From Candidatus Acidiferrales bacterium (GTDB lineage: Bacteria > Bacteroidota > Ignavibacteria > Kryptoniales > JAKASW01), in NCBI GenBank assembly GCA_035515795.1, contig DATJAY010000039.1:142964-206963 (forward strand): a stretch of 64,000 nucleotides of DNA, in the 5' to 3' direction. The position numbers and the translations under genes are program-made. Shown here in pieces: positions 41,661-52,928 of this stretch. The notes under the pieces are model-generated. The model was not told the DNA's origin. It worked only from the letters and a program-made list of their open reading frames with translations, and did no database searches. The number at the start of each line of letters is the position of its first letter. Position 1 is the stretch's first letter.

Positions 41661-42716
41661 ATGGCTGAGACTTTAACTCTTAAAAGCGTTTTGCAGGACC
41701 ACACCGCCGAGGGTGAGCTTTACACCAAACTTGAGAATGATTGGGTTTTGTGTTACGCGTGCGGCCATCGGTGCAAGATCAAACCCGGACGCGACGGGAT
41801 TTGCAAGGTGCGGTTTAATAAAGACGGAAAACTTTTTGTGCCGCGGGGATATGCTGCCGGGATTCAGCTCGACCCTATTGAGAAGAAACCGTTCTTCCAT
41901 GCATTCCCCGGGAGAAGCGCGGTAAGCTTCGGAATGCTGGGATGTGATTACCATTGTTCTTATTGTCAGAATTGGATTACGAGCCAGGCGATCCGAGATC
42001 CGTCCGCCGCCGCACAGCCGGAAGTAATCGAACCTGAAAAAATAGTCGAGCTCGCATTGCTCTATAAATCTCCGGTCTTGGTTTCAACATACAATGAGCC
42101 GCTCATCACGAGTGAATGGGCCGCAGAGATCTTCAAGCTGGCCAAGCCCTACGGGATTCGCGGCGCATACGTATCCAACGGCAACGCGACGCCGGAAGTG
42201 ATAGATTACATAACTCCTTATGTAGATCTGTATAAAGTCGACTTGAAAGGATTTGACGATAAAAGGTACAGGCAGCTTGGCGGAAGATTGGAAGTGGTTC
42301 TAAATGCCATCCATCTTCTGAAAGAAAAAGGACTCTGGGTGGAAATCGTGACGCTGTTGGTGCCGGGATTCAATGACGGCATAGAGGAATTGAAAGGCAT
42401 AGCTAAATTTATTGCGTCGGTCTCTCCGGAGATTCCATGGCACATCACGGCGTTTCATCAGGACTACAAGATGCTGGATAGGGAAAGCACCGATGCAAAG
42501 ATGCTGATGAACGCCGCAAGAATTGGAAAAGAAACGGGACTATATTTTGTATATGCCGGCAATTTGCCCGGCATGGTTGAAAACCTTGAAAATACCAACT
42601 GCCACAGATGTGGAGAGCTGCTCGTGGAACGAAGCGGATTCAGAGTGTTGAGGAATAATCTGATTGACGGTTCATGCAGAAAGTGCAAAGCAAGGATCCC
42701 TGGAGTATGGAAGTAA
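41661..42716 (+). CDS. amrS: AmmeMemoRadiSam system radical SAM enzyme
   Basis: 351 aa. N-terminal Cys cluster CYACGHRC..C, radical SAM motif GCDYHCSYCQNW, C-terminal CHRCG...C..C. Followed by AMMECR1 and MEMO genes. Confidence 0.88.
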   Translation: MAETLTLKSVLQDHTAEGELYTKLENDWVLCYACGHRCKIKPGRDGICKVRFNKDGKLFVPRGYAAGIQLDPIEKKPFFHAFPGRSAVSFGMLGCDYHCSYCQNWITSQAIRDPSAAAQPEVIEPEKIVELALLYKSPVLVSTYNEPLITSEWAAEIFKLAKPYGIRGAYVSNGNATPEVIDYITPYVDLYKVDLKGFDDKRYRQLGGRLEVVLNAIHLLKEKGLWVEIVTLLVPGFNDGIEELKGIAKFIASVSPEIPWHITAFHQDYKMLDRESTDAKMLMNAARIGKETGLYFVYAGNLPGMVENLENTNCHRCGELLVERSGFRVLRNNLIDGSCRKCKARIPGVWK

Positions 42717-43327
42717 ATCCAAACTGTTCTGAGATGGGATATGCTCTGACAAGCGAAGAGAAATCATATCTTCTTCGTGTCGCGCGCGGCTCCATAGAAG
42801 CGGCGGTGAAAAGAAAAGTCTATTCTCCGATCAAACCAGCTGATCAGAATTTGGCAAGGGCAGCGGGCGTTTTTGTTACGATTAAGAAGAACGGCGAGCT
42901 GCGAGGTTGTATCGGCTTAATTGAGCCTGAGTTCCCGTTATACCAGATCGTATCGAAAATGGCGGTGAGAGCCGCTACGTGTGACCCGCGATTCGAATCG
43001 GTTCGAGAAGATGAATTGAAGGATTTACGGATAGAAATTTCCATACTCTCTCCTTTGAAAAAACTCAGCACCATAGAGGAAATTGAGATCGGACGCCATG
43101 GTCTTATCATCGAGAGGGGAATTCACCGCGGCTTACTGTTACCTCAGGTGGCAACCGAAAACAATTGGAACAGGGAAGAATTCTTGGAATATACATGCGT
43201 AAAAGCCGGACTGGACACGGAAGATTACAAGAGTCCGGATGCGAGGCTGTATATTTTTTCCGCCGAGATCTTCGGCGAAAAGGAATTGGGAATTCCTTCA
43301 GAGGATAATTTTGCAGAACGAAAATGA
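42707..43327 (+). CDS. amrA: AmmeMemoRadiSam system protein A (AMMECR1 domain)
   Basis: Motifs GVFVTIKKNGELRGCIG, DPRF and GLLLPQV. ATG 42707 overlaps the amrS end by 10 nt. Confidence 0.85.
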   Translation: MEVNPNCSEMGYALTSEEKSYLLRVARGSIEAAVKRKVYSPIKPADQNLARAAGVFVTIKKNGELRGCIGLIEPEFPLYQIVSKMAVRAATCDPRFESVREDELKDLRIEISILSPLKKLSTIEEIEIGRHGLIIERGIHRGLLLPQVATENNWNREEFLEYTCVKAGLDTEDYKSPDARLYIFSAEIFGEKELGIPSEDNFAERK

Positions 43328-44153
43328 GTCAGTACGCCCGCCCGCCGTTGCGGGGTTATTCTATCCTGTCGGGAAGGATAGCCTGGCAAAAACGGTTAAG
43401 AAATTACTTGGTGAGGCAAGGGAAAACATTACGGGCGACGTTCCTAAGAGAATTTCGGGAATCATTTCACCACACGCGGGGTATTTGTATAGCGGATATA
43501 CAGCGGCGCATGCATATTCTCTTTTGCATAGAAATCAGTTCGCCACTGTAGCTATTATTTCTCCAAGTCACCATGAATATTTTGACGGCGTATCTGTCTT
43601 TTCTGGTAAAGCTTATTCGACCCCTCTGGGTGAGATAAAAATAAATTGTGAAACCAGGGAAAAATTTCTGGGACTTGCAGGCGATGTTGCGGTTAAATCT
43701 ACGCTTGGACATGGAGCAGAGCACGCCATAGAAGTACAGTTGCCATTTCTTCAATCGACCCTCGGAGATTTCGAACTCCTTCCAATCGTGATGGGCGACC
43801 AGAAGCGTGAATATTGCAGGGTGGTAGGCGGAGCGCTGGGCAATATTGCGTCTGGCTCCGACGTCTTGATTGTAGCTAGCTCCGATTTGTCTCACTACTA
43901 TGACTATGATACGGCTAACGACATGGATAAAGTATGCATAAATGATATAATGAGCCTGGACCCGGAAATTTTATTAAGCGATATCGAGAATCGCAGATGT
44001 GAGGCGTGCGGCGGTGGACCGATCGCCTCCTCCTTGTACGCTTCAAAGAATCTAGGGCTGAATAAAGTTTCACTTTTGAACCACTGCAATTCAGGCGATA
44101 CATCCGGTGATAAGTCGGCAGTCGTCGGATACTTATCAGCGATTATCTCATGA
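43311..44153 (+). CDS. amrB: AmmeMemoRadiSam system protein B (MEMO1 family)
   Basis: Motifs RPPAVAGLFYP, ISPHAGYLYSG, EHAIEVQLPFLQ and SSDLSHY. The start is uncertain: TTG 43311 is the only in-frame candidate near the conserved N-terminus. Confidence 0.8.
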   Translation: MQNENESVRPPAVAGLFYPVGKDSLAKTVKKLLGEARENITGDVPKRISGIISPHAGYLYSGYTAAHAYSLLHRNQFATVAIISPSHHEYFDGVSVFSGKAYSTPLGEIKINCETREKFLGLAGDVAVKSTLGHGAEHAIEVQLPFLQSTLGDFELLPIVMGDQKREYCRVVGGALGNIASGSDVLIVASSDLSHYYDYDTANDMDKVCINDIMSLDPEILLSDIENRRCEACGGGPIASSLYASKNLGLNKVSLLNHCNSGDTSGDKSAVVGYLSAIIS

Positions 44154-45060: not shown

Positions 45061-46137
45061 GTGAAATTCAAAGCATTGATCGCAAGTGGAGGAAGAGGAA
45101 CGCGGCTTCGACCGATAACTCACACACAGAATAAACACCTCATTCCAATTGCGAACAAACCGATACTGCATTACGCCATAGAAGCGGCGTTGTCGGCAGG
45201 AATAACCGAGATCGGGATCGTCACGAATGCGGACAGCAGCGAGGTCCCTCGTGCCATCGGCGATGGTTCGAAATGGGGAGCCAGGATAACCTACATTCCC
45301 CAGGAAGCACCTCTTGGACTTGCTCACGTCGTGAAAATCTCTCGAGACTTCATCGGTACCGACAATTTCATTTTCTATCTCGGCGACAACATGGTGGTGG
45401 GCGGAGTGAAGCGATACCTTGAAGAATTTGAGAAGAGCAAGGCGAATTGCTTTCTCACCCTTGCGAAAGTCAAAGACCCAGAAAGGTTCGGAGTTCCGCA
45501 GATAAAAAATAGAATGATCGTGAGAGTCGAAGAGAAGCCGAAGCGTCCGAAGAGCAGTTATGCCGTGGCAGGAATTTATATTTATGATCGGCACATTTTC
45601 GATGCCGTGAATAAAATAAAGCCGAGTGCGCGCGGGGAATTAGAAATATCGGATGCACATCAATATTTAATCGACCATGGTTACAAGGTCGGGTACGCTG
45701 AGATAACAGGATGGTGGAAGGACACGGGTAAGCCGGCCGATCTCCTCGAAGCCAACAGACTTGTACTTGAGAACAGCGAGCCGTCTATCGAAGCGGGCGT
45801 AGAAGTAGACTCACACAGCGACATCGCCGGAAGAGTGATTTTGCAGAAAGGATGCAAGATTTCAGGGAGCAAAATTCGAGGACCTGTAATCATTGGCGAA
45901 AATGCCGTTATTGAAAATAGTTATATCGGTCCTTTTACCTCTGTAGGAGCGCGCTCCCAGGTAAAGAACAGCGAAGTGGAGTATAGCATAGTTCTGAAGG
46001 AGTGCAAGATTTTGGATGCCGGCATGCGCATCGAGGGGAGTCTTCTCGGAAACGGTGTGGAGATCGTCAGGGCTGACGGCAAACCGCGCGTGCAGCGCTT
46101 CATGATCGGTGATCAGAGCAGGGTGGAAGTACCGTGA
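45061..46137 (+). CDS. Glucose-1-phosphate thymidylyltransferase-like sugar nucleotidyltransferase (long form with left-handed beta-helix tail)
   Basis: 358 aa, GTG start. ALIASGGRGTRLRPITHTQNKHLIPIANKPIL and a hexapeptide-repeat C-terminus. Confidence 0.85.
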   Translation: MKFKALIASGGRGTRLRPITHTQNKHLIPIANKPILHYAIEAALSAGITEIGIVTNADSSEVPRAIGDGSKWGARITYIPQEAPLGLAHVVKISRDFIGTDNFIFYLGDNMVVGGVKRYLEEFEKSKANCFLTLAKVKDPERFGVPQIKNRMIVRVEEKPKRPKSSYAVAGIYIYDRHIFDAVNKIKPSARGELEISDAHQYLIDHGYKVGYAEITGWWKDTGKPADLLEANRLVLENSEPSIEAGVEVDSHSDIAGRVILQKGCKISGSKIRGPVIIGENAVIENSYIGPFTSVGARSQVKNSEVEYSIVLKECKILDAGMRIEGSLLGNGVEIVRADGKPRVQRFMIGDQSRVEVP

Positions 46138-46330
46138 AGTTCTTGGCTGTGCCGTCTGGGGTCTTCCTGACGAATAGGGATTTACGAGTTTATCTCGTTT
46201 AGACAGATACTCAAGCATAGTTCGTAACTGTGAAATGCTTCAGGATATACCCCCTTTTCTGTCATTCGATGTGACGGCGATATCAATCACTCTTTCATAA
46301 CCCAAGTATTTTCTTTAAATTATTTCTATT

Positions 46331-47437
46331 ATGGAGAGCAAGGTCAACAAGCCCCGCGTTATCGCAGCCATGAGTGGAGGAGTAGACTCTTCACTTGCCG
46401 CGGTTCTCATGATGGAACAAGGATACGACGTCATAGGCGTGACGATCAAAACGTATAACTATGAGGATGTGGGAGGAAACAGCGATTCCACCTGCTGCTC
46501 GATTGACGGAATCAATATGGCAAGGAGCATCGCGGAGAAATTTGGTTTCCCTCATTATGTTTTCGATTTCAGCGAGAGGTTTAGAAAGGAAGTTATCGAC
46601 GGCTTTGTCGAAGAATATCTTTCCGGGAGAACCCCGAACCCTTGCGTCGTCTGCAATCAAAAAATCAAATGGGCGTATCTTATCGAGAAAGCAACCAGCC
46701 TCTGCGCCGACTACATTTGCACCGGCCATTATGCAAAAGTTCGATTTGATAAAGGCGCACGTAGATTCGTCATATCGAAAGGCAGCGATGCTGCGAAAGA
46801 CCAATCCTATGCCCTCTACGGAATTAGCCAGGACAACTTGAGCAAAACAATTTTTCCGCTGGCCGGGCTCACCAAACCTCAGGTTCGCGAACTCGCATTG
46901 AAGTACGGATTGGCAAGTTATAACAAACCCGAGAGCTATGAAATATGCTTCGTCTCAGATAACAACTACATGCGATTTCTGAAGGAAGTGGTTCCGGGAT
47001 TAGAAACCCGTATCTCCAACGGCGAAATTCTTTTCGAAGGGAAGCCGATCGGGAAACATCATGGGTATCCTTTTTACACGATCGGGCAGAGAAAGGGACT
47101 CGGCATTAGTCACAGTGAAGCATTGTACGTCAGGAATATCGATGCGAAAACCAACACAATCGAAGTGGATATTGACGAGAGACTGTTTGCAAGAAGACTC
47201 GTCGCCAATCACATAAATTTTGTGAAATACCCGGCATTGAGCGACGGGAAAATATATAACGGGAAAATCAGATATAAAGATAACGGAGCCGATTGCATTG
47301 CAAAACAGACTGACAATGACGAAATTACAGTTGAATTCACAAATCCTCGGAGGGCAATGACACCCGGGCAAAGTGTAGTACTTTACGAAGATGAAGATGT
47401 GGTAGCAGGTGGAATTATATTGAAAGTGTTAGGCTAA
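46331..47437 (+). CDS. mnmA: tRNA 2-thiouridine(34) synthase MnmA
   Basis: 368 aa. PP-loop AMSGGVDSS, NPCVVCNQKIKW, TGHYA and DQSYAL. Confidence 0.93.
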   Translation: MESKVNKPRVIAAMSGGVDSSLAAVLMMEQGYDVIGVTIKTYNYEDVGGNSDSTCCSIDGINMARSIAEKFGFPHYVFDFSERFRKEVIDGFVEEYLSGRTPNPCVVCNQKIKWAYLIEKATSLCADYICTGHYAKVRFDKGARRFVISKGSDAAKDQSYALYGISQDNLSKTIFPLAGLTKPQVRELALKYGLASYNKPESYEICFVSDNNYMRFLKEVVPGLETRISNGEILFEGKPIGKHHGYPFYTIGQRKGLGISHSEALYVRNIDAKTNTIEVDIDERLFARRLVANHINFVKYPALSDGKIYNGKIRYKDNGADCIAKQTDNDEITVEFTNPRRAMTPGQSVVLYEDEDVVAGGIILKVLG

Positions 47438-47438
47438 A

Positions 47439-47846
47439 ATGGCAAAGTATTCGATCCTAATCGCCGATGATGACGATTCGCAGCGCAACGTTCAAAAGTT
47501 GATCTTGGATGAAGTTGCGAAAGCTCTGAAGTCGGAATTCAAAATCGACGAGGCAGCGGACAGTCTTGAGACGAGAAGATGTCTTAGCACAAATGTTTAC
47601 GACCTGATCATACTTGACAACGAATTCATGGATGATCTAAAGCCGGGACATTTGCCGGGGATCGCTATTCTGCAGCTCATGAGAAAAGCGGGGCCTAACA
47701 TGGGGTCGCCCACCGTTTTTTGTACGGCAGATCCGTACAACACGCTAAGGCCGATGGTGGAAAAGTATGGCGCCATTTATTATCCAAAAGCAAAAGCGGA
47801 CGCGGAAGAGATGACTCGAATGTACTCGAAACTGTTGCTGGAGTAA
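47439..47846 (+). CDS. Stand-alone response-regulator receiver domain
   Basis: 135 aa. ILIADDDDSQ acidic pocket, LIILDNEF phospho-acceptor Asp region, no output domain. Starts 1 nt after the mnmA stop. Confidence 0.8.
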   Translation: MAKYSILIADDDDSQRNVQKLILDEVAKALKSEFKIDEAADSLETRRCLSTNVYDLIILDNEFMDDLKPGHLPGIAILQLMRKAGPNMGSPTVFCTADPYNTLRPMVEKYGAIYYPKAKADAEEMTRMYSKLLLE

Positions 47847-47847
47847 T

Positions 47848-48537
47848 CTACTTTTCCAGGACCACGACGATGTGATCCGATTTATCGAGGAATTTTGTCA
47901 GAGGGTAGTCGATTGATCTCCATATCCAGAGCGGTAGCTTGTAAAACAAGCGGGGTGCCCGCAGAAGCACAAGAAGTTTGCTTCCGAAAAGGTAGGATCT
48001 TTTCTCAACGTCGGGGAAGAATGAAAGCAATGTCTTTCTATCAAACGTGTGAAGGTGGGCATTGACCGGCGTAGCCTGGTTGCAGTGAATGCAAAGCGTG
48101 TAGCGTAGCCTTTCTCTGTAGGGGGTGGATACGATTGCCTTACCTCCTTTTCCCAGGACTCTCCATATTTCCTCTGCGGCGGATCCGGGTGAGTTGAGGT
48201 GTTCCATGATCTCGGACGCTATCACCAGACTCAAGCTTCCCGTTTTGAACGGAAGGAGGCAGGCGTCCGCCAAAACTGCGCCGCTTGAATTTGGCCTCAA
48301 GACCTGCAGATTCTTATGAGAAAGGTCTACGAAGAAAATTTGTTCGTGAGCAATCTCTCCTGTCCATCCGCTCCCGCTTCCTACGTCTAGTATGCTGTTT
48401 GTTTTTCCTGCGAGCCTTTTAATGAACTTCCTGAAGATTACTTCGTACGCACGGCCTGTTTCATCGAGGTTGTTAAAATAGTCGAAAAGTTCAGCATCGG
48501 CTTCGTAGTGCGCGATATGGTCGGAGCAGCGATTCAC
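47848..48537 (-). CDS. Class I SAM-dependent methyltransferase
   Basis: 229 aa. Motif I ILDVGSGSG, and VIASEIMEHL (Methyltransf_11-like) with a CIHCNQ insertion. GTGA overlap with the macro gene stop. Confidence 0.8.
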   Translation of the reverse strand: MNRCSDHIAHYEADAELFDYFNNLDETGRAYEVIFRKFIKRLAGKTNSILDVGSGSGWTGEIAHEQIFFVDLSHKNLQVLRPNSSGAVLADACLLPFKTGSLSLVIASEIMEHLNSPGSAAEEIWRVLGKGGKAIVSTPYRERLRYTLCIHCNQATPVNAHLHTFDRKTLLSFFPDVEKRSYLFGSKLLVLLRAPRLFYKLPLWIWRSIDYPLTKFLDKSDHIVVVLEK

Positions 48538-49082
48538 TTCTCTTTGCCTGGATCCCTTCGAGACAGGTCCTGAATTTCATTTGAGAAACTTTCGTAAGCT
48601 TCATGGTCGTACAAAACGAAAGTGATCGCCTCCAGATGTTTTGCCTTCATAAGAAAAACAGCAGCTTCTTTAGTCATTATTTTTGCGGCCTCGGAAAGCG
48701 GAAAACCTCCGACACCTGTTCCCAGGGCGGGAAAGGCTAACGATATGATTCCGTTCGACTCGGCAAGTTCTAATGCTGACCTGGTTGCAGATGCGATCTT
48801 GGAGGAGTCGGTCTGCAAATCCTGTCCCATGACCGCTGCATGAATCACGTATTTTGCATTCAACGCACCGGCACCCGTCATCACCGCTCGTCCGACAGGT
48901 TTCGGACCCTGTCGCATCGCTTCCTGCTCTATGACAGCTCCACCTTTCTGTTTGATCGCCCCAGCGACGCCGCCTCCCATCCAGAAATAGTTGTTGGCGG
49001 CATTCACGACCGCGTCCCCTTCATAATCGGTTATATCTCCCTGAATTGCCTCGAGTATCTTTCCGTCGATCTCTACTCTCAT
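48534..49082 (-). CDS. Macro domain protein (ADP-ribose binding / O-acetyl-ADP-ribose deacetylase-like)
   Basis: Motifs GDITDYEGDAVVNAANN, GGGVAGAI, VIHAA and FPALGTGVGG. ATG 49082 lies 2 nt after the kinase stop. The track start TTG 49088 would overlap it by 4 nt. Confidence 0.88.
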   Translation of the reverse strand: MRVEIDGKILEAIQGDITDYEGDAVVNAANNYFWMGGGVAGAIKQKGGAVIEQEAMRQGPKPVGRAVMTGAGALNAKYVIHAAVMGQDLQTDSSKIASATRSALELAESNGIISLAFPALGTGVGGFPLSEAAKIMTKEAAVFLMKAKHLEAITFVLYDHEAYESFSNEIQDLSRRDPGKEK

Positions 49083-49084
49083 CT

Positions 49085-50695
49085 TCAATTCGGCTGGATC
49101 AATGGAAGCCTGATGGTCATCTTCGTTCCAATGCCGATCCGACTTTCTATCTTGATCTCTCCGTGATGGTCGTCGATAATTTTTTTGACGATCGCCATTC
49201 CCAGTCCTGTCCCGTGCTTTTTTCCGTACGTGACGAAGGGTTCAAATATTGTCTTTCGAATTTCTTCCGGCATTCCGCTGCCCGTGTCCTGCAATTCGAT
49301 TACGAGGCAATCTGCATCTGAGCGAGAGCGCACCGAGAAACTTCCGCCGTCGGGCATCGCGTCAGCTGCATTGCCGGCAATATTCAAGATGACGCGCGTC
49401 ATTTTATCGGGATCGATCTCGATGTCGCCGGCATAAGAGCTTTCGTTCACCAGATTGATTTTTCTATATTCGAAATCACTTTTCAAAAACCATAGTACCC
49501 CCTTGAGAAAGTCGTTGAACTTCACGCGCTGTATGTTCATTTGAGAGACGCCCCGCGAAAAATCGAGCACCTCCTGTGCCATCTTGACGAGCCGGTCTAT
49601 CTGAGTTGTTATCTCGTCCACGAGATTTGCCGACTCTTCGTCATGTGCTTTTTTCTTAAGGACTTGTGCGTAGAGCTTAATCGCCGACATCGGGTTTTTT
49701 ATATCGTGGATTACCGAACCTGCCATTTTTCCGACGGCTGACAGACGTTCGGCTTTCACCATTTCCGAGGCAAGACGTGAATTCTCAATTGCAATGGAGG
49801 CGTGAATAGAAAAAGCCTTCAAAAATCTTTCATCGTCGGTGTCAAATTCTTCGCCCCGCTTGTTGAGAAGCTGGAAGACGCCGATGATCTTGTTATCCCT
49901 GTTCCGCATAGGAACGCACAGCATGTTTGTTGTCTTGAACCCTGTGCGTCTGTCAAATTCGGGGTTGAATCGCAGATCGTTATAAGCATCTTTGATGCTT
50001 ACGGATTCTCCGGTTTCGGCGACATACCCCGAGATGCCTTTTCCGATCGGCTGGCGAACTTCACTTAGTTCTCCGCCGACCAAAATCTTCGACCATATCT
50101 CCTTGGCATTTTCATCTACGAGGTATATCGTGCCGCGCTCGGCTTCCGTTATTCGAATTGCCTCATCGAGTATCATCTGCAACACTTTATCAAGCTCGAG
50201 CGACGAGTTTACAGTCTGGGTCGCTTCGATGAGAGCGTTTAGTTTCGTGATTTCCTTTTTGGAGATTTGATGGTGAGATTCTATTTGCTTTTTCAGAGTG
50301 TTGTTGGATGCTGAAAGCCTGTCGGACAACGCTCTGGCCATGTTCCATGTTATTCTTGGGAATCTTTGCATCAGCGATAGAAAAGTTTTCTTACTGAATT
50401 GGAGAACAACCGAACTTTCTGCAGCGGTCACGGAAGCGCTCGCACGAAGCTCATTCTTTCCATCGGCAACTGAGCTTTCGCCGAAGAAGTCGCCGTTACC
50501 GAGTACGCAAATCATTTCCTCTTTTTCATCGATGAGTTTTGCTACCTGAACGCTGCCGGATTTCAGTACGTACAGCGATTGAACGATTTCACCTTCTTTG
50601 ATGACGGTCAGTCCGGCGTCCATTTTTTCTTCGCTCGCTGATGTTAATAGTTCCTTGACTTCAGCATCTTTTAGACCATCAAACAAAGAGTACAT
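49085..50695 (-). CDS. Sensor histidine kinase with N-terminal cNMP-binding and GAF domains (soluble)
   Basis: 536 aa. CAP_ED-like GDFFGESS...RSASV, a GAF region, H-box SVIHDIKNPMS, N/G boxes NIAGNAADAM, DTGSGMP and GTGLGMAI. No TM segments. Confidence 0.88.
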   Translation of the reverse strand: MYSLFDGLKDAEVKELLTSASEEKMDAGLTVIKEGEIVQSLYVLKSGSVQVAKLIDEKEEMICVLGNGDFFGESSVADGKNELRASASVTAAESSVVLQFSKKTFLSLMQRFPRITWNMARALSDRLSASNNTLKKQIESHHQISKKEITKLNALIEATQTVNSSLELDKVLQMILDEAIRITEAERGTIYLVDENAKEIWSKILVGGELSEVRQPIGKGISGYVAETGESVSIKDAYNDLRFNPEFDRRTGFKTTNMLCVPMRNRDNKIIGVFQLLNKRGEEFDTDDERFLKAFSIHASIAIENSRLASEMVKAERLSAVGKMAGSVIHDIKNPMSAIKLYAQVLKKKAHDEESANLVDEITTQIDRLVKMAQEVLDFSRGVSQMNIQRVKFNDFLKGVLWFLKSDFEYRKINLVNESSYAGDIEIDPDKMTRVILNIAGNAADAMPDGGSFSVRSRSDADCLVIELQDTGSGMPEEIRKTIFEPFVTYGKKHGTGLGMAIVKKIIDDHHGEIKIESRIGIGTKMTIRLPLIQPN

Positions 50696-50864
50696 GATTC
50701 GTCTTATTCTTGTGGTTGGTTTAATGTAAGTTAACTCAATGTGGATAGAATCGCAATCCTAGAACAGACGACGTTTTTCACTGATTGAGGAAAAACACAG
50801 CAGTATCCGCAATACCAGCCTTGATTTTGACTTTGGCAAGAGACTATTTTACCCTGTAAGCTCA

Positions 50865-52928
50865 GTGCAAACAAAATTTAAATTCCTTGTTTTTCTTATT
50901 GCCGCCTGTGCAACAGCGTACAGTGGCTGTTTCCTGTGGACCCCCGTAAAAGACGAATGGCAGGACTTCACCGCCTATTTCAACACTTATTATAACGGCG
51001 AACACGCCTTCGACGAAGCCATGCTCGATGTAAAAAGCTCTCTCAAAGAATACAATATCAGTCTACTGTCGGGTCAGCAGACAACTCCATTTGTCATCAG
51101 CTCGAATGCGAAACAGGATTTTGACATCGCAATCGAAAAGGCATCAAAGGTGCTCCAGTTTTATCCGAACTCCGGCTACACCGAAGACTGCCTCTTCATG
51201 ATCGGAATAGGCTATTATTATGAGGCCGATAATATCCGAGCGGGCAGAAAATTCATAGAAGAACAATCAAAGTATCCGGACAGCAGAAGGTTTTGCGAGG
51301 CGCAGATGTACTACGGCGAGATCGAAGTGAAAAATCGAAATTACCGAGATGGATATGACGACCTCCTGAAGGCCTTGGTACAAGCCGAAAAACAAGACAA
51401 TTCCGATGTCGCCGCCGGAACTGCGGGCGATCTTGCCGAATATTTTTTGATGCAGACGGACACGGTAACAGCGGCAGCATATCTGGACACCGCCGCCGCA
51501 TTTTCGAAGAACGACGAAGCTGCGGTCTATTCCTGTAAAGCAGGGGACCTCTTTGAGAGTCTCGGAAATCTTAAAGACGCGCGACGCGAATATGAAGCCG
51601 CATGGGGTGATGCGCGAGATATAAGACTCCGGTTTTATTCCAGGTACTTCCTGGCACGCGCCGAAAGACGCAACAAACAATTCTACTCTTCTCTGAGTGA
51701 CCTTAAATATCTCAGAAGCGACGACAAATATTTTCAATACTTTCCTTTGATCGAATATCAACGGACGGAAGCCCTTTACGATTCTGGAGAGGTTTCCTCA
51801 GCGTTCTCGGAGTTTCAGAGAATCGATACGGCTTATTCGGCAAGTGAAGCCGCTACCCGAAGTGCATTTAGATTGGCAAACATGTATCTCTACAAAGTCG
51901 GTGATTACCAGAATGCTTTGAAGTATTACCAGAAAGCCGCATCTCACGTTGCAGTCCCGGTAATTTCCGAAAGGTCACGACAAATGTCCACCACTTTGCA
52001 GGAATATTCGGTGGATGCCTACAAACTCCATCTTGCGGACAGCATGTACCAGCGGGCGTTGAGTGCCGCATCAAGGAACGACTCGACGATCAAGCATTCG
52101 CAGGACGAGATAGATACTTTGTATGAACATGCGGCTCTGGCTCAGCAGGTCCTGGGAGGTTTCTTCTTGTTCAGGCTCCAGTTTTCCGATTCAGCAATCA
52201 GCCATTACCTGGCAATTGTTTCGCAATTTTCAAAATCAAAAGTTTATCCGTCGGCATTGTATACGCTCGGTGAATACTATTTTTCATCGGGTGACACCGC
52301 AAATGCTAAGAATTACCTGATCAAGCTGATAAATGAACTCCCGGAATCCGGATATACGGTTTCGGCGAGATCCCTTCTTGGAATGGAGCAGACAGTTTTT
52401 GAGGACTCATCGCAAGCAGGTTACGACCGTGCCATGAATTTAGAAAATGGAAATTTTCATGATTCGGCCGTCGCCGTCTTGAAGGGATTGTTGAAAGGAA
52501 AGAAGTCTTCTCTCGCCCCGCAGATTCTTTACGCGATTGGGTGGATCTACGAAAATGATCTCAACGTCTCGGATTCTGCATTCGTTTATTACAAAAAGCT
52601 TGCGACCCAATATCCCGTAAGCGACTATAGTGCTAATGTGAATCCGACAATTGCAGGATATGAGCAGGCACAGCGTGACAGTGCTCTGGCGCGTAAACAT
52701 GTTGAGGATTCCATCGCCAATGTTTCCAAGTCAATCGCGAGTGATTCGGCAAAAGAAAGCGCTCTAACCCGGCCACACTTGAAGACCGCTTCGGAGGACT
52801 CGACAAATCAAAGGGGACGCACGATGGATGCGGGTCAGTTCCCAAAGCCTGATTCTCTCGAAGCGGTTCGTCCATCGAAACCGGTGACGGATTCGGTCGC
52901 ATTGCGTCGAAGACAGATCGGTAAATGA
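50865..52928 (+). CDS. Tetratricopeptide-repeat lipoprotein
   Basis: 687 aa, GTG start. Lipobox AYSGC, multiple TPR-like A..Y......G.Y..A units, Ser/Asp-rich C-terminal tail. Confidence 0.7.
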   Translation: MQTKFKFLVFLIAACATAYSGCFLWTPVKDEWQDFTAYFNTYYNGEHAFDEAMLDVKSSLKEYNISLLSGQQTTPFVISSNAKQDFDIAIEKASKVLQFYPNSGYTEDCLFMIGIGYYYEADNIRAGRKFIEEQSKYPDSRRFCEAQMYYGEIEVKNRNYRDGYDDLLKALVQAEKQDNSDVAAGTAGDLAEYFLMQTDTVTAAAYLDTAAAFSKNDEAAVYSCKAGDLFESLGNLKDARREYEAAWGDARDIRLRFYSRYFLARAERRNKQFYSSLSDLKYLRSDDKYFQYFPLIEYQRTEALYDSGEVSSAFSEFQRIDTAYSASEAATRSAFRLANMYLYKVGDYQNALKYYQKAASHVAVPVISERSRQMSTTLQEYSVDAYKLHLADSMYQRALSAASRNDSTIKHSQDEIDTLYEHAALAQQVLGGFFLFRLQFSDSAISHYLAIVSQFSKSKVYPSALYTLGEYYFSSGDTANAKNYLIKLINELPESGYTVSARSLLGMEQTVFEDSSQAGYDRAMNLENGNFHDSAVAVLKGLLKGKKSSLAPQILYAIGWIYENDLNVSDSAFVYYKKLATQYPVSDYSANVNPTIAGYEQAQRDSALARKHVEDSIANVSKSIASDSAKESALTRPHLKTASEDSTNQRGRTMDAGQFPKPDSLEAVRPSKPVTDSVALRRRQIGK

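Follow-up and report, generated by a model that had tools for sequence, protein, structure and literature searches.

The 64-kb window analysed here (64,000 nucleotides, positions 142,964 to 206,963 of contig DATJAY010000039.1 in assembly GCA_035515795.1) contains three abutting minus-strand open reading frames (ORFs), encoding a soluble histidine kinase, a macro-domain protein and an S-adenosylmethionine (SAM)-dependent methyltransferase, which converge on a plus-strand single-domain receiver gene lying next to mnmA (Table 1). An earlier note on this DNA had proposed that these genes form one signalling module, in which a kinase gated by a cyclic nucleotide (cNMP) and acting with the neighbouring receiver would be linked to ADP-ribosylation or methylation of a target. 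Comparison with related loci indicates that the four genes are not one system and that most of the signalling arrangement proposed for them comes down to the packing usual in operons. The reading that we favour, with somewhat better than even confidence, is that an orphan kinase, which probably senses cyclic AMP (cAMP) or cyclic GMP (cGMP), shares its transcript with a housekeeping-type ADP-ribose hydrolase. It is favoured because the kinase-macro arrangement is absent from most kinase orthologues and from most macro genes of the subfamily and because no fusions of the two were found among the closest macro relatives; the co-transcription would then reflect co-regulation rather than a shared biochemical pathway.

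Two sets of loci were compared with the window. The first comprised 80 species-level genome loci carrying kinase orthologues of 47–77% identity, the best 80 of several hundred matches; the window genes were mapped on to these loci, all neighbouring ORFs were clustered, and the results were placed on a neighbour-joining tree of the kinases built without support values. The second came from a metagenome scan with a macro alignment and comprised 80 loci, again the best 80 of several hundred matches, with macro proteins 53–73% identical to the L059 query, of which 74 had sufficient upstream sequence. Both sets represent the nearest family members, remoter ones lying outside the sample, and genes within the loci are greedy longest-ORF calls. 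The 12 loci with a kinase at least 57% identical are referred to below as the close relatives, and the remaining 68 kinases as distant.

The macro gene adjoins the kinase gene in all 12 close relatives, which share the synteny pyrD-pyrK-TPR / kinase-macro-(methyltransferase) / receiver-mnmA, and within this window clade the kinase stop and macro start codons overlap or lie no more than 2 nt apart (ATGA, GTGA, TAATG or TGA-n-ATG). Ten of the 68 distant kinases also have a macro gene directly downstream on the same strand, with a spacer of up to ~100 nt, and one additional distant locus (L027) holds a degraded macro copy. The distant pairs have different flanks, with PriA-LarC-Kdo transferase genes upstream and genes for a small membrane protein, an HDAC or an aminotransferase downstream, and no methyltransferase, receiver or mnmA gene was found near any of the ten. 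Taken over the 80 species-level loci, the macro gene is immediately downstream of the kinase in 22 and about 70% of the kinase orthologues have no macro neighbour. The reverse search gave a similar result, with a kinase immediately upstream of the macro gene at 13 of the 74 metagenome loci and none at the other 61, where the macro genes fall into other recurring contexts (GroES-GroEL / XRE-HTH-macro-DUF2851; PAP2-macro). Judged against the chance adjacency that the earlier note had allowed for, the kinase-macro pairing stood, being found in 22/80 loci and beyond the shared synteny, whereas the methyltransferase did not, being confined to the window clade. In these sequence comparisons the kinase-macro pairing is the one association that outlives synteny, old but optional.

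A Rosetta-stone search for fusions of a kinase or a methyltransferase with a macro domain found none among the best 150 of 14,200 macro relatives. The partners fused to single macro domains were NUDIX, ADP-ribosylglycohydrolase, PAP2, GDSL esterase, OCD (ornithine cyclodeaminase-like) and PF04199 domains (proteins P0352, P0418, P0419, P0340, P0333, P0353 and P0453), and of these the NUDIX and ADP-ribosylglycohydrolase partners would fit the processing of ADP-ribose metabolites. The wider claim of the earlier note, a system joining the kinase, ADP-ribose chemistry, methylation and the receiver, gained no evidence from either search, given the 61 of 74 macros unlinked to a kinase and the lack of kinase-macro fusions among the closest relatives. 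No literature link of macro domains with histidine kinases was found. In five metagenome loci (L094 and L097-L100) the arrangement is kinase-macro-GT9 heptosyltransferase, and the position behind the macro gene tends to be taken by genes for cell-envelope glycans. One Microflora Danica (MFD) assembly (L005:11611-13360) has a shortened macro gene and an interrupted receiver ORF, for which indel errors in the assembly seem a likelier cause than true pseudogene formation.

The domain composition assigned to the kinase in the earlier note was borne out by the hidden Markov model searches it had called for, with cNMP_binding (1.8e-18), GAF (4.6e-20), HisKA (2.4e-13) and HATPase_c (1.5e-25) all above their Pfam cut-offs, and so was its solubility, as no membrane segment was detected in the protein (the Kyte-Doolittle 19-residue mean peaks at 1.06). 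The kinase has the phospho-acceptor His and the N, G1 and G2 boxes of a HisKA/HATPase_c histidine kinase (PF00512 and PF02518 above cut-offs); H330 in the H-box, N438/N442, D470/G472/G474 and G495-G499 in the N, G1 and G2 boxes are unchanged across 18 orthologues, and the H-box HDIKNP is invariant in the aligned orthologues. The top NCBIfam matches of the transmitter were AtoS (198.9 bits) and ZraS (169.4 bits), against equivalog cut-offs of 646 and 479. More than 100 clusters in the kinase family share this one architecture.

Conservation across the kinase family is highest in the GAF domain, whose closest solved relatives are exclusively cNMP-binding GAF domains: CyaB2 (1ykd, 1e-45), PDE5 (3lfv, 4.5e-33), PDE2A (1mc0, 6.7e-33) and PDE10A (2zmf). 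The NKFDE motif (N-K-Xn-F-X3-D-E) is treated as a mark of cNMP-binding GAF domains (PMC4411481, PMC11977230), and the kinase GAF shows both this motif and the sequence relatedness that define the class; all five residues, in the form N278-K279-x4-F284-x3-D288-E289, are unchanged in 18 aligned orthologues. The domain can be placed with the PDE/CyaB-type GAF domains on this signature, a point new to this analysis, and since it carries the signature the kinase probably takes its input from cAMP or cGMP bound there.

The N-terminal domain has the CAP-type fold assignment (PF00027, 66.7 bits against a cut-off of 27.5), with a phosphate-binding cassette that departs from the family pattern. The cassette reads GE..RSA[RS] in 67 of the 68 kinases outside the window clade; within the clade it is degenerate (RNSAS, KNSAS, KNYAS, AAAYT, RAETM). 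The window kinase has a 3-residue insertion (GESSVADGKNELRASAS) which it shares with its three nearest relatives, the key position being R or K, so that the canonical G-E-x(8)-R-[ST]-A with its conserved Arg becomes GE, 10 residues and R-A-S; the canonical Arg column in the clade relatives holds K, N, A or E. The nucleotide pocket of the CAP-type domain, judged by these residues, appears degenerate in the window clade, which is also a new point, and any cyclic nucleotide sensed by the kinase would more likely be bound by the GAF domain. The gating by a cNMP proposed in the earlier note is accordingly kept in altered form: the route through the CAP-type domain is doubtful, the cassette being degenerate, and the GAF domain with its NKFDE signature takes its place as candidate sensor. 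The cassette degeneracy and insertion are confined to the window clade, where the kinase and macro genes also overlap and a methyltransferase gene has joined them.

No response regulator gene, co-oriented or conserved, recurs beside the kinase in the 80 loci. Genes recurring there encode SQS_PSY, amine oxidase, ABC-F, Kdo transferase, LarC, PriA, HflX, Ham1, DLH and HDAC, and kinases without a macro neighbour are flanked by housekeeping genes (squalene/phytoene synthases with amine oxidase, ABC-F, HflX, Ham1, dienelactone hydrolase). A search for hidden receivers among the small recurrent neighbours of the distant kinases (cupredoxin, MOSC, VKOR, LarA, RuvB and others) found one only in cluster C110, a 434-aa TPR protein with a C-terminal receiver, encoded on the opposite strand two genes upstream of the kinase in the related loci L045 and L067. 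This TPR-receiver protein is the sole receiver-containing gene near any kinase orthologue outside the window clade. Our verdict from the compared loci is that the protein is an orphan, belonging to what appears to be an uncharacterised family of soluble orphan histidine kinases with an optional macro partner; no paper describing this family was found in the literature on cNMP/GAF kinases.

The macro protein (PF01661, 3.6e-33, 114.5 bits) has Thermus TTHA0132 (2dx6, 2.9e-37) as its best solved relative, with ~55% identity by our own count over the aligned core. It carries the VNAANN motif and the two Gly-rich phosphate/ribose loops of the macro fold; NAANN..WMGGGVAGAI and PALGTGVGGF are invariant, and NAAN, GGGVAGAI and GTGVGG are unchanged in 23 kinase-linked macros. 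Loss of binding or catalytic residues, which the earlier note had offered as grounds for abandoning its view of the macro protein, was thus not observed, and the ADP-ribose-binding residues are shown by alignment to be intact in the predicted protein. The catalytic Asp and His of MacroD1/D2 (GGGVDxxIH) are not present, Ala and Lys standing in their place (GGGVAGAIK), which puts the protein in the Asp-less subgroup of MacroD-like macrodomains. Af1521, which also has Ala for the MacroD Asp, is nevertheless catalytically active (PMC5413906), and by analogy the macro protein may hydrolyse O-acetyl-ADP-ribose, ADP-ribose-1''-phosphate or mono-ADP-ribosylated proteins. The CRP-family regulator TTHB099 binds weakly at a site of TTHA0132 (dissociation constant ~2e-7 M), whose expression rises mildly in the TTHB099 mutant (log fold change 0.87) (PMC7662524); here, for a second time though very weakly, a CRP-type module coincides with the macro subfamily, which we regard as a curiosity.

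The methyltransferase matches Methyltransf_11/23/25 and contains the SAM motif LDVGSGSG of class I enzymes, with G53 and G55 invariant, together with an invariant Cys/His cluster, C149-x-H151-C152-N153 ... H161-L-H163. Its scores fall below the NCBIfam equivalog cut-offs (39.5 against 155 for DVU_1556 and 39.1 against 185 for BioC), and BioC, UbiG, UbiE/MenG and DVU_1556 identities were rejected on the curated cut-offs. An AlphaFold2 model (pLDDT 87.7) returned only generic class I small-molecule/lipid methyltransferases in Foldseek (TM-score no higher than 0.68) and a sequence search against the PDB gave only weak, generic matches, so that model and structure search offered no clue to the substrate. 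The gene is present in 9 of the 12 close relatives and absent from the basal L010 and from L004 and L008; in all nine relatives with an intact copy it overlaps the macro gene by 4 nt. The kinase-macro-methyltransferase triad described as a unit in the earlier note did not survive the co-occurrence search that the note had suggested, the methyltransferase being found in those nine clade relatives and in no distant kinase-macro pair.

Methyltransferase orthologues at least 58% identical are restricted to the window clade. Six homologues at 38–42% identity adjoin PMT_2, Lnt, an unannotated 588-aa protein or PorV-like/GT1/GT2/GT9 genes, and no macro gene lies beside any of the six. The distribution suggests that the window methyltransferase is a clade-specific insertion from a cell-envelope-glycan-associated family. 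L103 and L104 lack the kinase but have, directly behind a macro gene, a methyltransferase from this family (CIHCN...NAHLHSFD, 42% identity), and in L114 macro and methyltransferase are separated by a Planctomycete-type cytochrome c gene (L103:6001-7283, L104:193-1475, L114:463-2171); these loci hint at an independent macro-methyltransferase association. Nothing relevant was found in the literature on macro and methyltransferase neighbourhoods.

The receiver scores 30.2 bits to PF00072, exactly at the Pfam gathering cut-off, and is divergent, with only weak PDB matches (E = 0.02). The residues of a CheY-like acceptor site are kept in 12 orthologues, namely the acidic pocket DDD (D10-D13), the acceptor D60 in LDNEF, T/S in C[TS][AG]D and K in YYxK, and a degenerate receiver was rejected because all of these are conserved. 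Receiver and mnmA are syntenic in all 12 close relatives, with a 1-nt gap to the mnmA stop in 10 of the 11 measurable loci. Between the receiver and the convergent minus-strand operon only four of the 11 measurable loci have a 1-nt gap, the rest having 24–129 nt. Receiver homologues at 42–47% identity occur in an amidohydrolase-REC-MFS-...-PrmC-Dtd context, with no mnmA, kinase or macro gene near them. The family yields 71 matches at E <= 1e-5, against more than 1,500 for the kinase at E <= 1e-20 (word-index search, in which the kinase count may include paralogous kinases). The convergence of the operon on an orphan receiver, which the earlier note had presented as a design, is not upheld by these observations, since the receiver is coupled to mnmA, the 1-nt junction is found in just 4/11 loci and homologues occur elsewhere. 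Gene order suggests instead that the receiver is coupled to mnmA and abuts the kinase operon only through genome compaction. The translational coupling of a receiver to a tRNA-modification gene (46331-47846, plus strand) is unusual.

The gene boundaries given for the four genes in the earlier note all checked out on the ORF map, including the minus-strand trio with near-zero spacing. The macro gene has, besides its ATG, an alternative TTG start at 49088 (184 aa) that overlaps the kinase TGA at 49087-49085, and the GTG start of the methyltransferase sits in a GTGA overlap with the macro stop. On the opposite strand the receiver starts 1 nt past the mnmA stop (47435-47437), and its own stop (47844-47846) is separated by 1 nt from that of the methyltransferase (47848-47850). 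Such spacing is the norm for this genome and that of the kinase operon is unexceptional: among 36 same-strand neighbour pairs in the window (greedy ORF call) 12 have a gap of 2 nt or less, nine of these being 4-nt overlaps, and 5 of 13 convergent pairs are no more than 24 nt apart.

Table 1. Coordinates of the features discussed (positions within the 64,000-nt window)
Feature	Position	Strand	Basis
Soluble orphan histidine kinase, 536 aa	49085..50695	-	CAP-type cNMP domain, GAF, HisKA, HATPase_c (Pfam, all above cut-offs)
CAP/CRP-type cyclic-nucleotide-binding domain, residues 24-111	50363..50626	-	PF00027 1.8e-18
Phosphate-binding cassette of CAP-type domain, kinase residues 68-93	50417-50494	-	Cassette comparison
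PDE/CyaB-type GAF domain, residues 167-303	49787..50197	-	Solved relatives and NKFDE signature
NKFDE residues N278 K279 F284 D288 E289 of kinase GAF	49829-49864	-	
Transmitter: HisKA residues 322-382, HATPase_c residues 428-532	49100..49732	-	Pfam
MacroD-like macro-domain protein (TTHA0132/Af1521 type), 182 aa from ATG at 49082	48534..49082	-	PF01661
Class I SAM-dependent methyltransferase, 229 aa	47848..48537	-	Methyltransf_11 1.5e-13
Single-domain receiver, 135 aa, terminal gene of plus-strand mnmA unit	47439..47846	+	PF00072
mnmA (tRNA 2-thiouridylase)	46331..47437	+	tRNA_Me_trans 1.9e-68 plus M and C domains
Divergent intergenic region, 169 nt, between kinase and TPR lipoprotein genes	50696..50864	.	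ORF map; sole space for operon promoter

The divergent region upstream of the kinase gave no sigma-70-like match in a scan that is blind to other promoter types. Over positions 46000-51200 the numbers of promoter and terminator consensus matches equalled the shuffled expectation, and because of this, and because promoters other than sigma-70 types lay outside the scan, it was uninformative. The folded RNA of the convergent junction formed no stable structure and was less stable than its shuffles (z = +1.8), on which ground a hidden bidirectional terminator at this point was rejected.

From these data we propose a compact three-gene minus-strand operon in a metagenome-assembled genome (MAG) that would be Kryptoniota-like (FCB group), led by the orphan soluble kinase. 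cAMP or cGMP would bind the GAF domain, the CAP-type domain being a second nucleotide module in most of the family whose cassette has probably decayed or changed in the window clade. The ligand may then modulate autophosphorylation at His330 of the HisKA/HATPase_c transmitter, with phosphotransfer most likely to a response regulator encoded elsewhere in the genome. The MacroD-like enzyme would ride on the kinase transcript as an old, dispensable partner, and the methyltransferase gene would have been inserted later, in this clade only, its family being otherwise associated with genes for cell-envelope glycans. The receiver would be the terminal gene of the opposing mnmA operon, abutting through tight genome packing.

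Several observations weigh against this reading. Kinase-macro adjacency has been kept through rearrangement of both flanks in at least four contexts, a retention which exceeds usual neutral synteny and hints at selection for co-expression, and in the window clade the stop and start codons of the two genes are always overlapping or no more than 2 nt apart. The macro-methyltransferase pair recurs without a kinase (L103, L104), so the methyltransferase may not be a random insert, and the receiver, with every phospho-acceptor residue and a constant place beside the operon in the clade, may yet be a substrate of the kinase. We therefore weighed other readings, which are not mutually exclusive. A true functional module of kinase and macro protein, in which the latter would remove ADP-ribosylation from the kinase, a regulator or a shared target, or would clear an ADP-ribose-derived metabolite feeding back on the nucleotide sensors, seems unlikely to us. 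The pairing is retained across those flank contexts between kinases only 47–50% identical, the start and stop codons overlap throughout the window clade and the macro motifs are intact; the CAP-type pocket has also diverged in the clade where the coupling tightened, which concerns a single lineage and is suggestive only. Set against this are the roughly 70% of kinase orthologues without a macro neighbour, the 61 of 74 subfamily macros without an upstream kinase, the lack of kinase-macro fusions among the closest macro relatives, the lack of any ADP-ribosyltransferase or sirtuin among the ORFs scanned in the window and the lack of a literature link in our search. Least probable is a functional unit that would join ADP-ribose chemistry to two-component signalling, with the macro protein stripping regulatory ADP-ribose from the kinase or a partner, or with the CAP-type domain, its cassette altered just where the two genes became translationally coupled, now recognising a nucleotide derived from ADP-ribose and broken down by the macro protein.

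It is also improbable, in our estimate, that the 135-aa receiver is the cognate phospho-acceptor of the kinase, whether as a CheY-like single-domain output or as a phosphate sink, which would make the convergence of the two units functional. All of the D-D-D-T/S-K residues are in place in the receiver, it adjoins the operon in 12/12 syntenic relatives and there is no other regulator nearby among the ORFs scanned in the window; however its gene runs on the other strand, where it is tied to mnmA (1-nt gap, 10/11 loci), the convergent gap ranges from 1 to 129 nt, and outside the clade neither gene was found near the other. Its family is moreover far smaller than that of the kinase, and most kinase-bearing lineages would therefore be without it. 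A real functional pair of macro protein and methyltransferase, acting on a common small molecule or a glycan-linked substrate with the kinase as merely the upstream gene, appears quite unlikely. It would account for the 4-nt overlap in 9/9 intact relatives, for the adjacency of both families without a kinase in L103 and L104 (with one gene between them in L114), and for macros that lie beside or are fused with PAP2 phosphatases and lie beside a GT9 glycosyltransferase. L004 and L008 have, however, lost the methyltransferase cleanly and the basal L010 is without it, all six other methyltransferase homologues examined are without a macro neighbour, the methyltransferase is present at just 3 of the 61 kinase-less macro loci, and the structure searches supplied no substrate clue.

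Compared with characterised systems, the kinase GAF is like the cNMP-binding tandem-GAF regulators (Anabaena CyaB2, mammalian PDE2/PDE5/PDE10) in sequence and in its NKFDE signature, but the kinase has a single GAF, a histidine-kinase transmitter in place of a cyclase or phosphodiesterase and a CAP-type domain in front, and its ligand binding is predicted. With AtoS/ZraS/NtrB-type kinases it has in common the HisKA and HATPase_c core, its own H-box being HDIKNP; unlike them it is soluble, has other sensor domains, scores far below the equivalog cut-offs and has no adjacent NtrC-type regulator in the 80 loci. The macro protein has the same NAANN..G[GA]GVAGAI and GTGVGG loops as TTHA0132 (2DX6) and Archaeoglobus Af1521, with Ala for the MacroD Asp, but its gene sits in a kinase operon, and its activity, like that of TTHA0132, is predicted. 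The DarTG and SirTM-macro operons likewise place a macro-domain hydrolase with a partner enzyme, whereas no DarT, sirtuin, LplA or GcvH-L neighbour is found here. A DarG identity for the macro protein was rejected (a score of 27.8 bits where the cut-off is 250, no further domain in its 182 aa, a weak PADLOC match and no DarT neighbour). Pycsar/CBASS-type effectors have the CAP-type cNMP-binding domain in common with the kinase, and the PADLOC TIR effector/PycTIR models match kinase residues 13-174, but the similarity is at the level of the domain only, with no cyclase, no effector domain and a housekeeping context that is syntenic across species. The PADLOC defence models as a whole gave only partial, domain-level matches in this conserved housekeeping synteny, and a known anti-phage defence system was rejected for both reasons.

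The ORFs scanned in the 64-kb window, together with the annotation of L001, include genes for pyrimidine biosynthesis, RuvABC, RecJ, alanine racemase, ECF sigma factors, an AmmeMemoRadiSam cluster, fatty-acid oxidation and similar functions; no cyclase, ADP-ribosyltransferase, sirtuin or further regulator was found among them. The radical SAM - AMMECR1 - Memo trio (AmmeMemoRadiSam) lies at ~41661-44153 on the plus strand, just upstream of the DUF2520 / NTP-transferase / mnmA / receiver run. The close relatives of the kinase, receiver and methyltransferase are all from Kryptoniota, 'Bacteroidetes' or Ignavibacteria MAGs, and the organism is therefore most likely Kryptoniota-like, in the FCB group. 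The NCBI label of the MAG is that of an Acidobacteriota order (Candidatus Acidoferrales/Acidiferrales); an error in this label or in the binning is probable.

We advise against carrying the four-gene 'system' forward as a new architecture. A functional tie of kinase and macro protein, if true, would be a first link of ADP-ribose processing to two-component signalling; on present evidence there is co-transcription only. That a single soluble kinase should unite a CAP-type domain with an NKFDE GAF domain, and have an optional macro partner besides, deserves mention but would be of little surprise to a specialist. Cyclic-nucleotide signalling in the Kryptoniota and Ignavibacteria of the FCB group is essentially unstudied, and these widespread, uncharacterised soluble orphan kinases, which appear to carry two nucleotide-sensor modules (CAP-type and PDE-type NKFDE GAF), would offer a clean biochemical target there.

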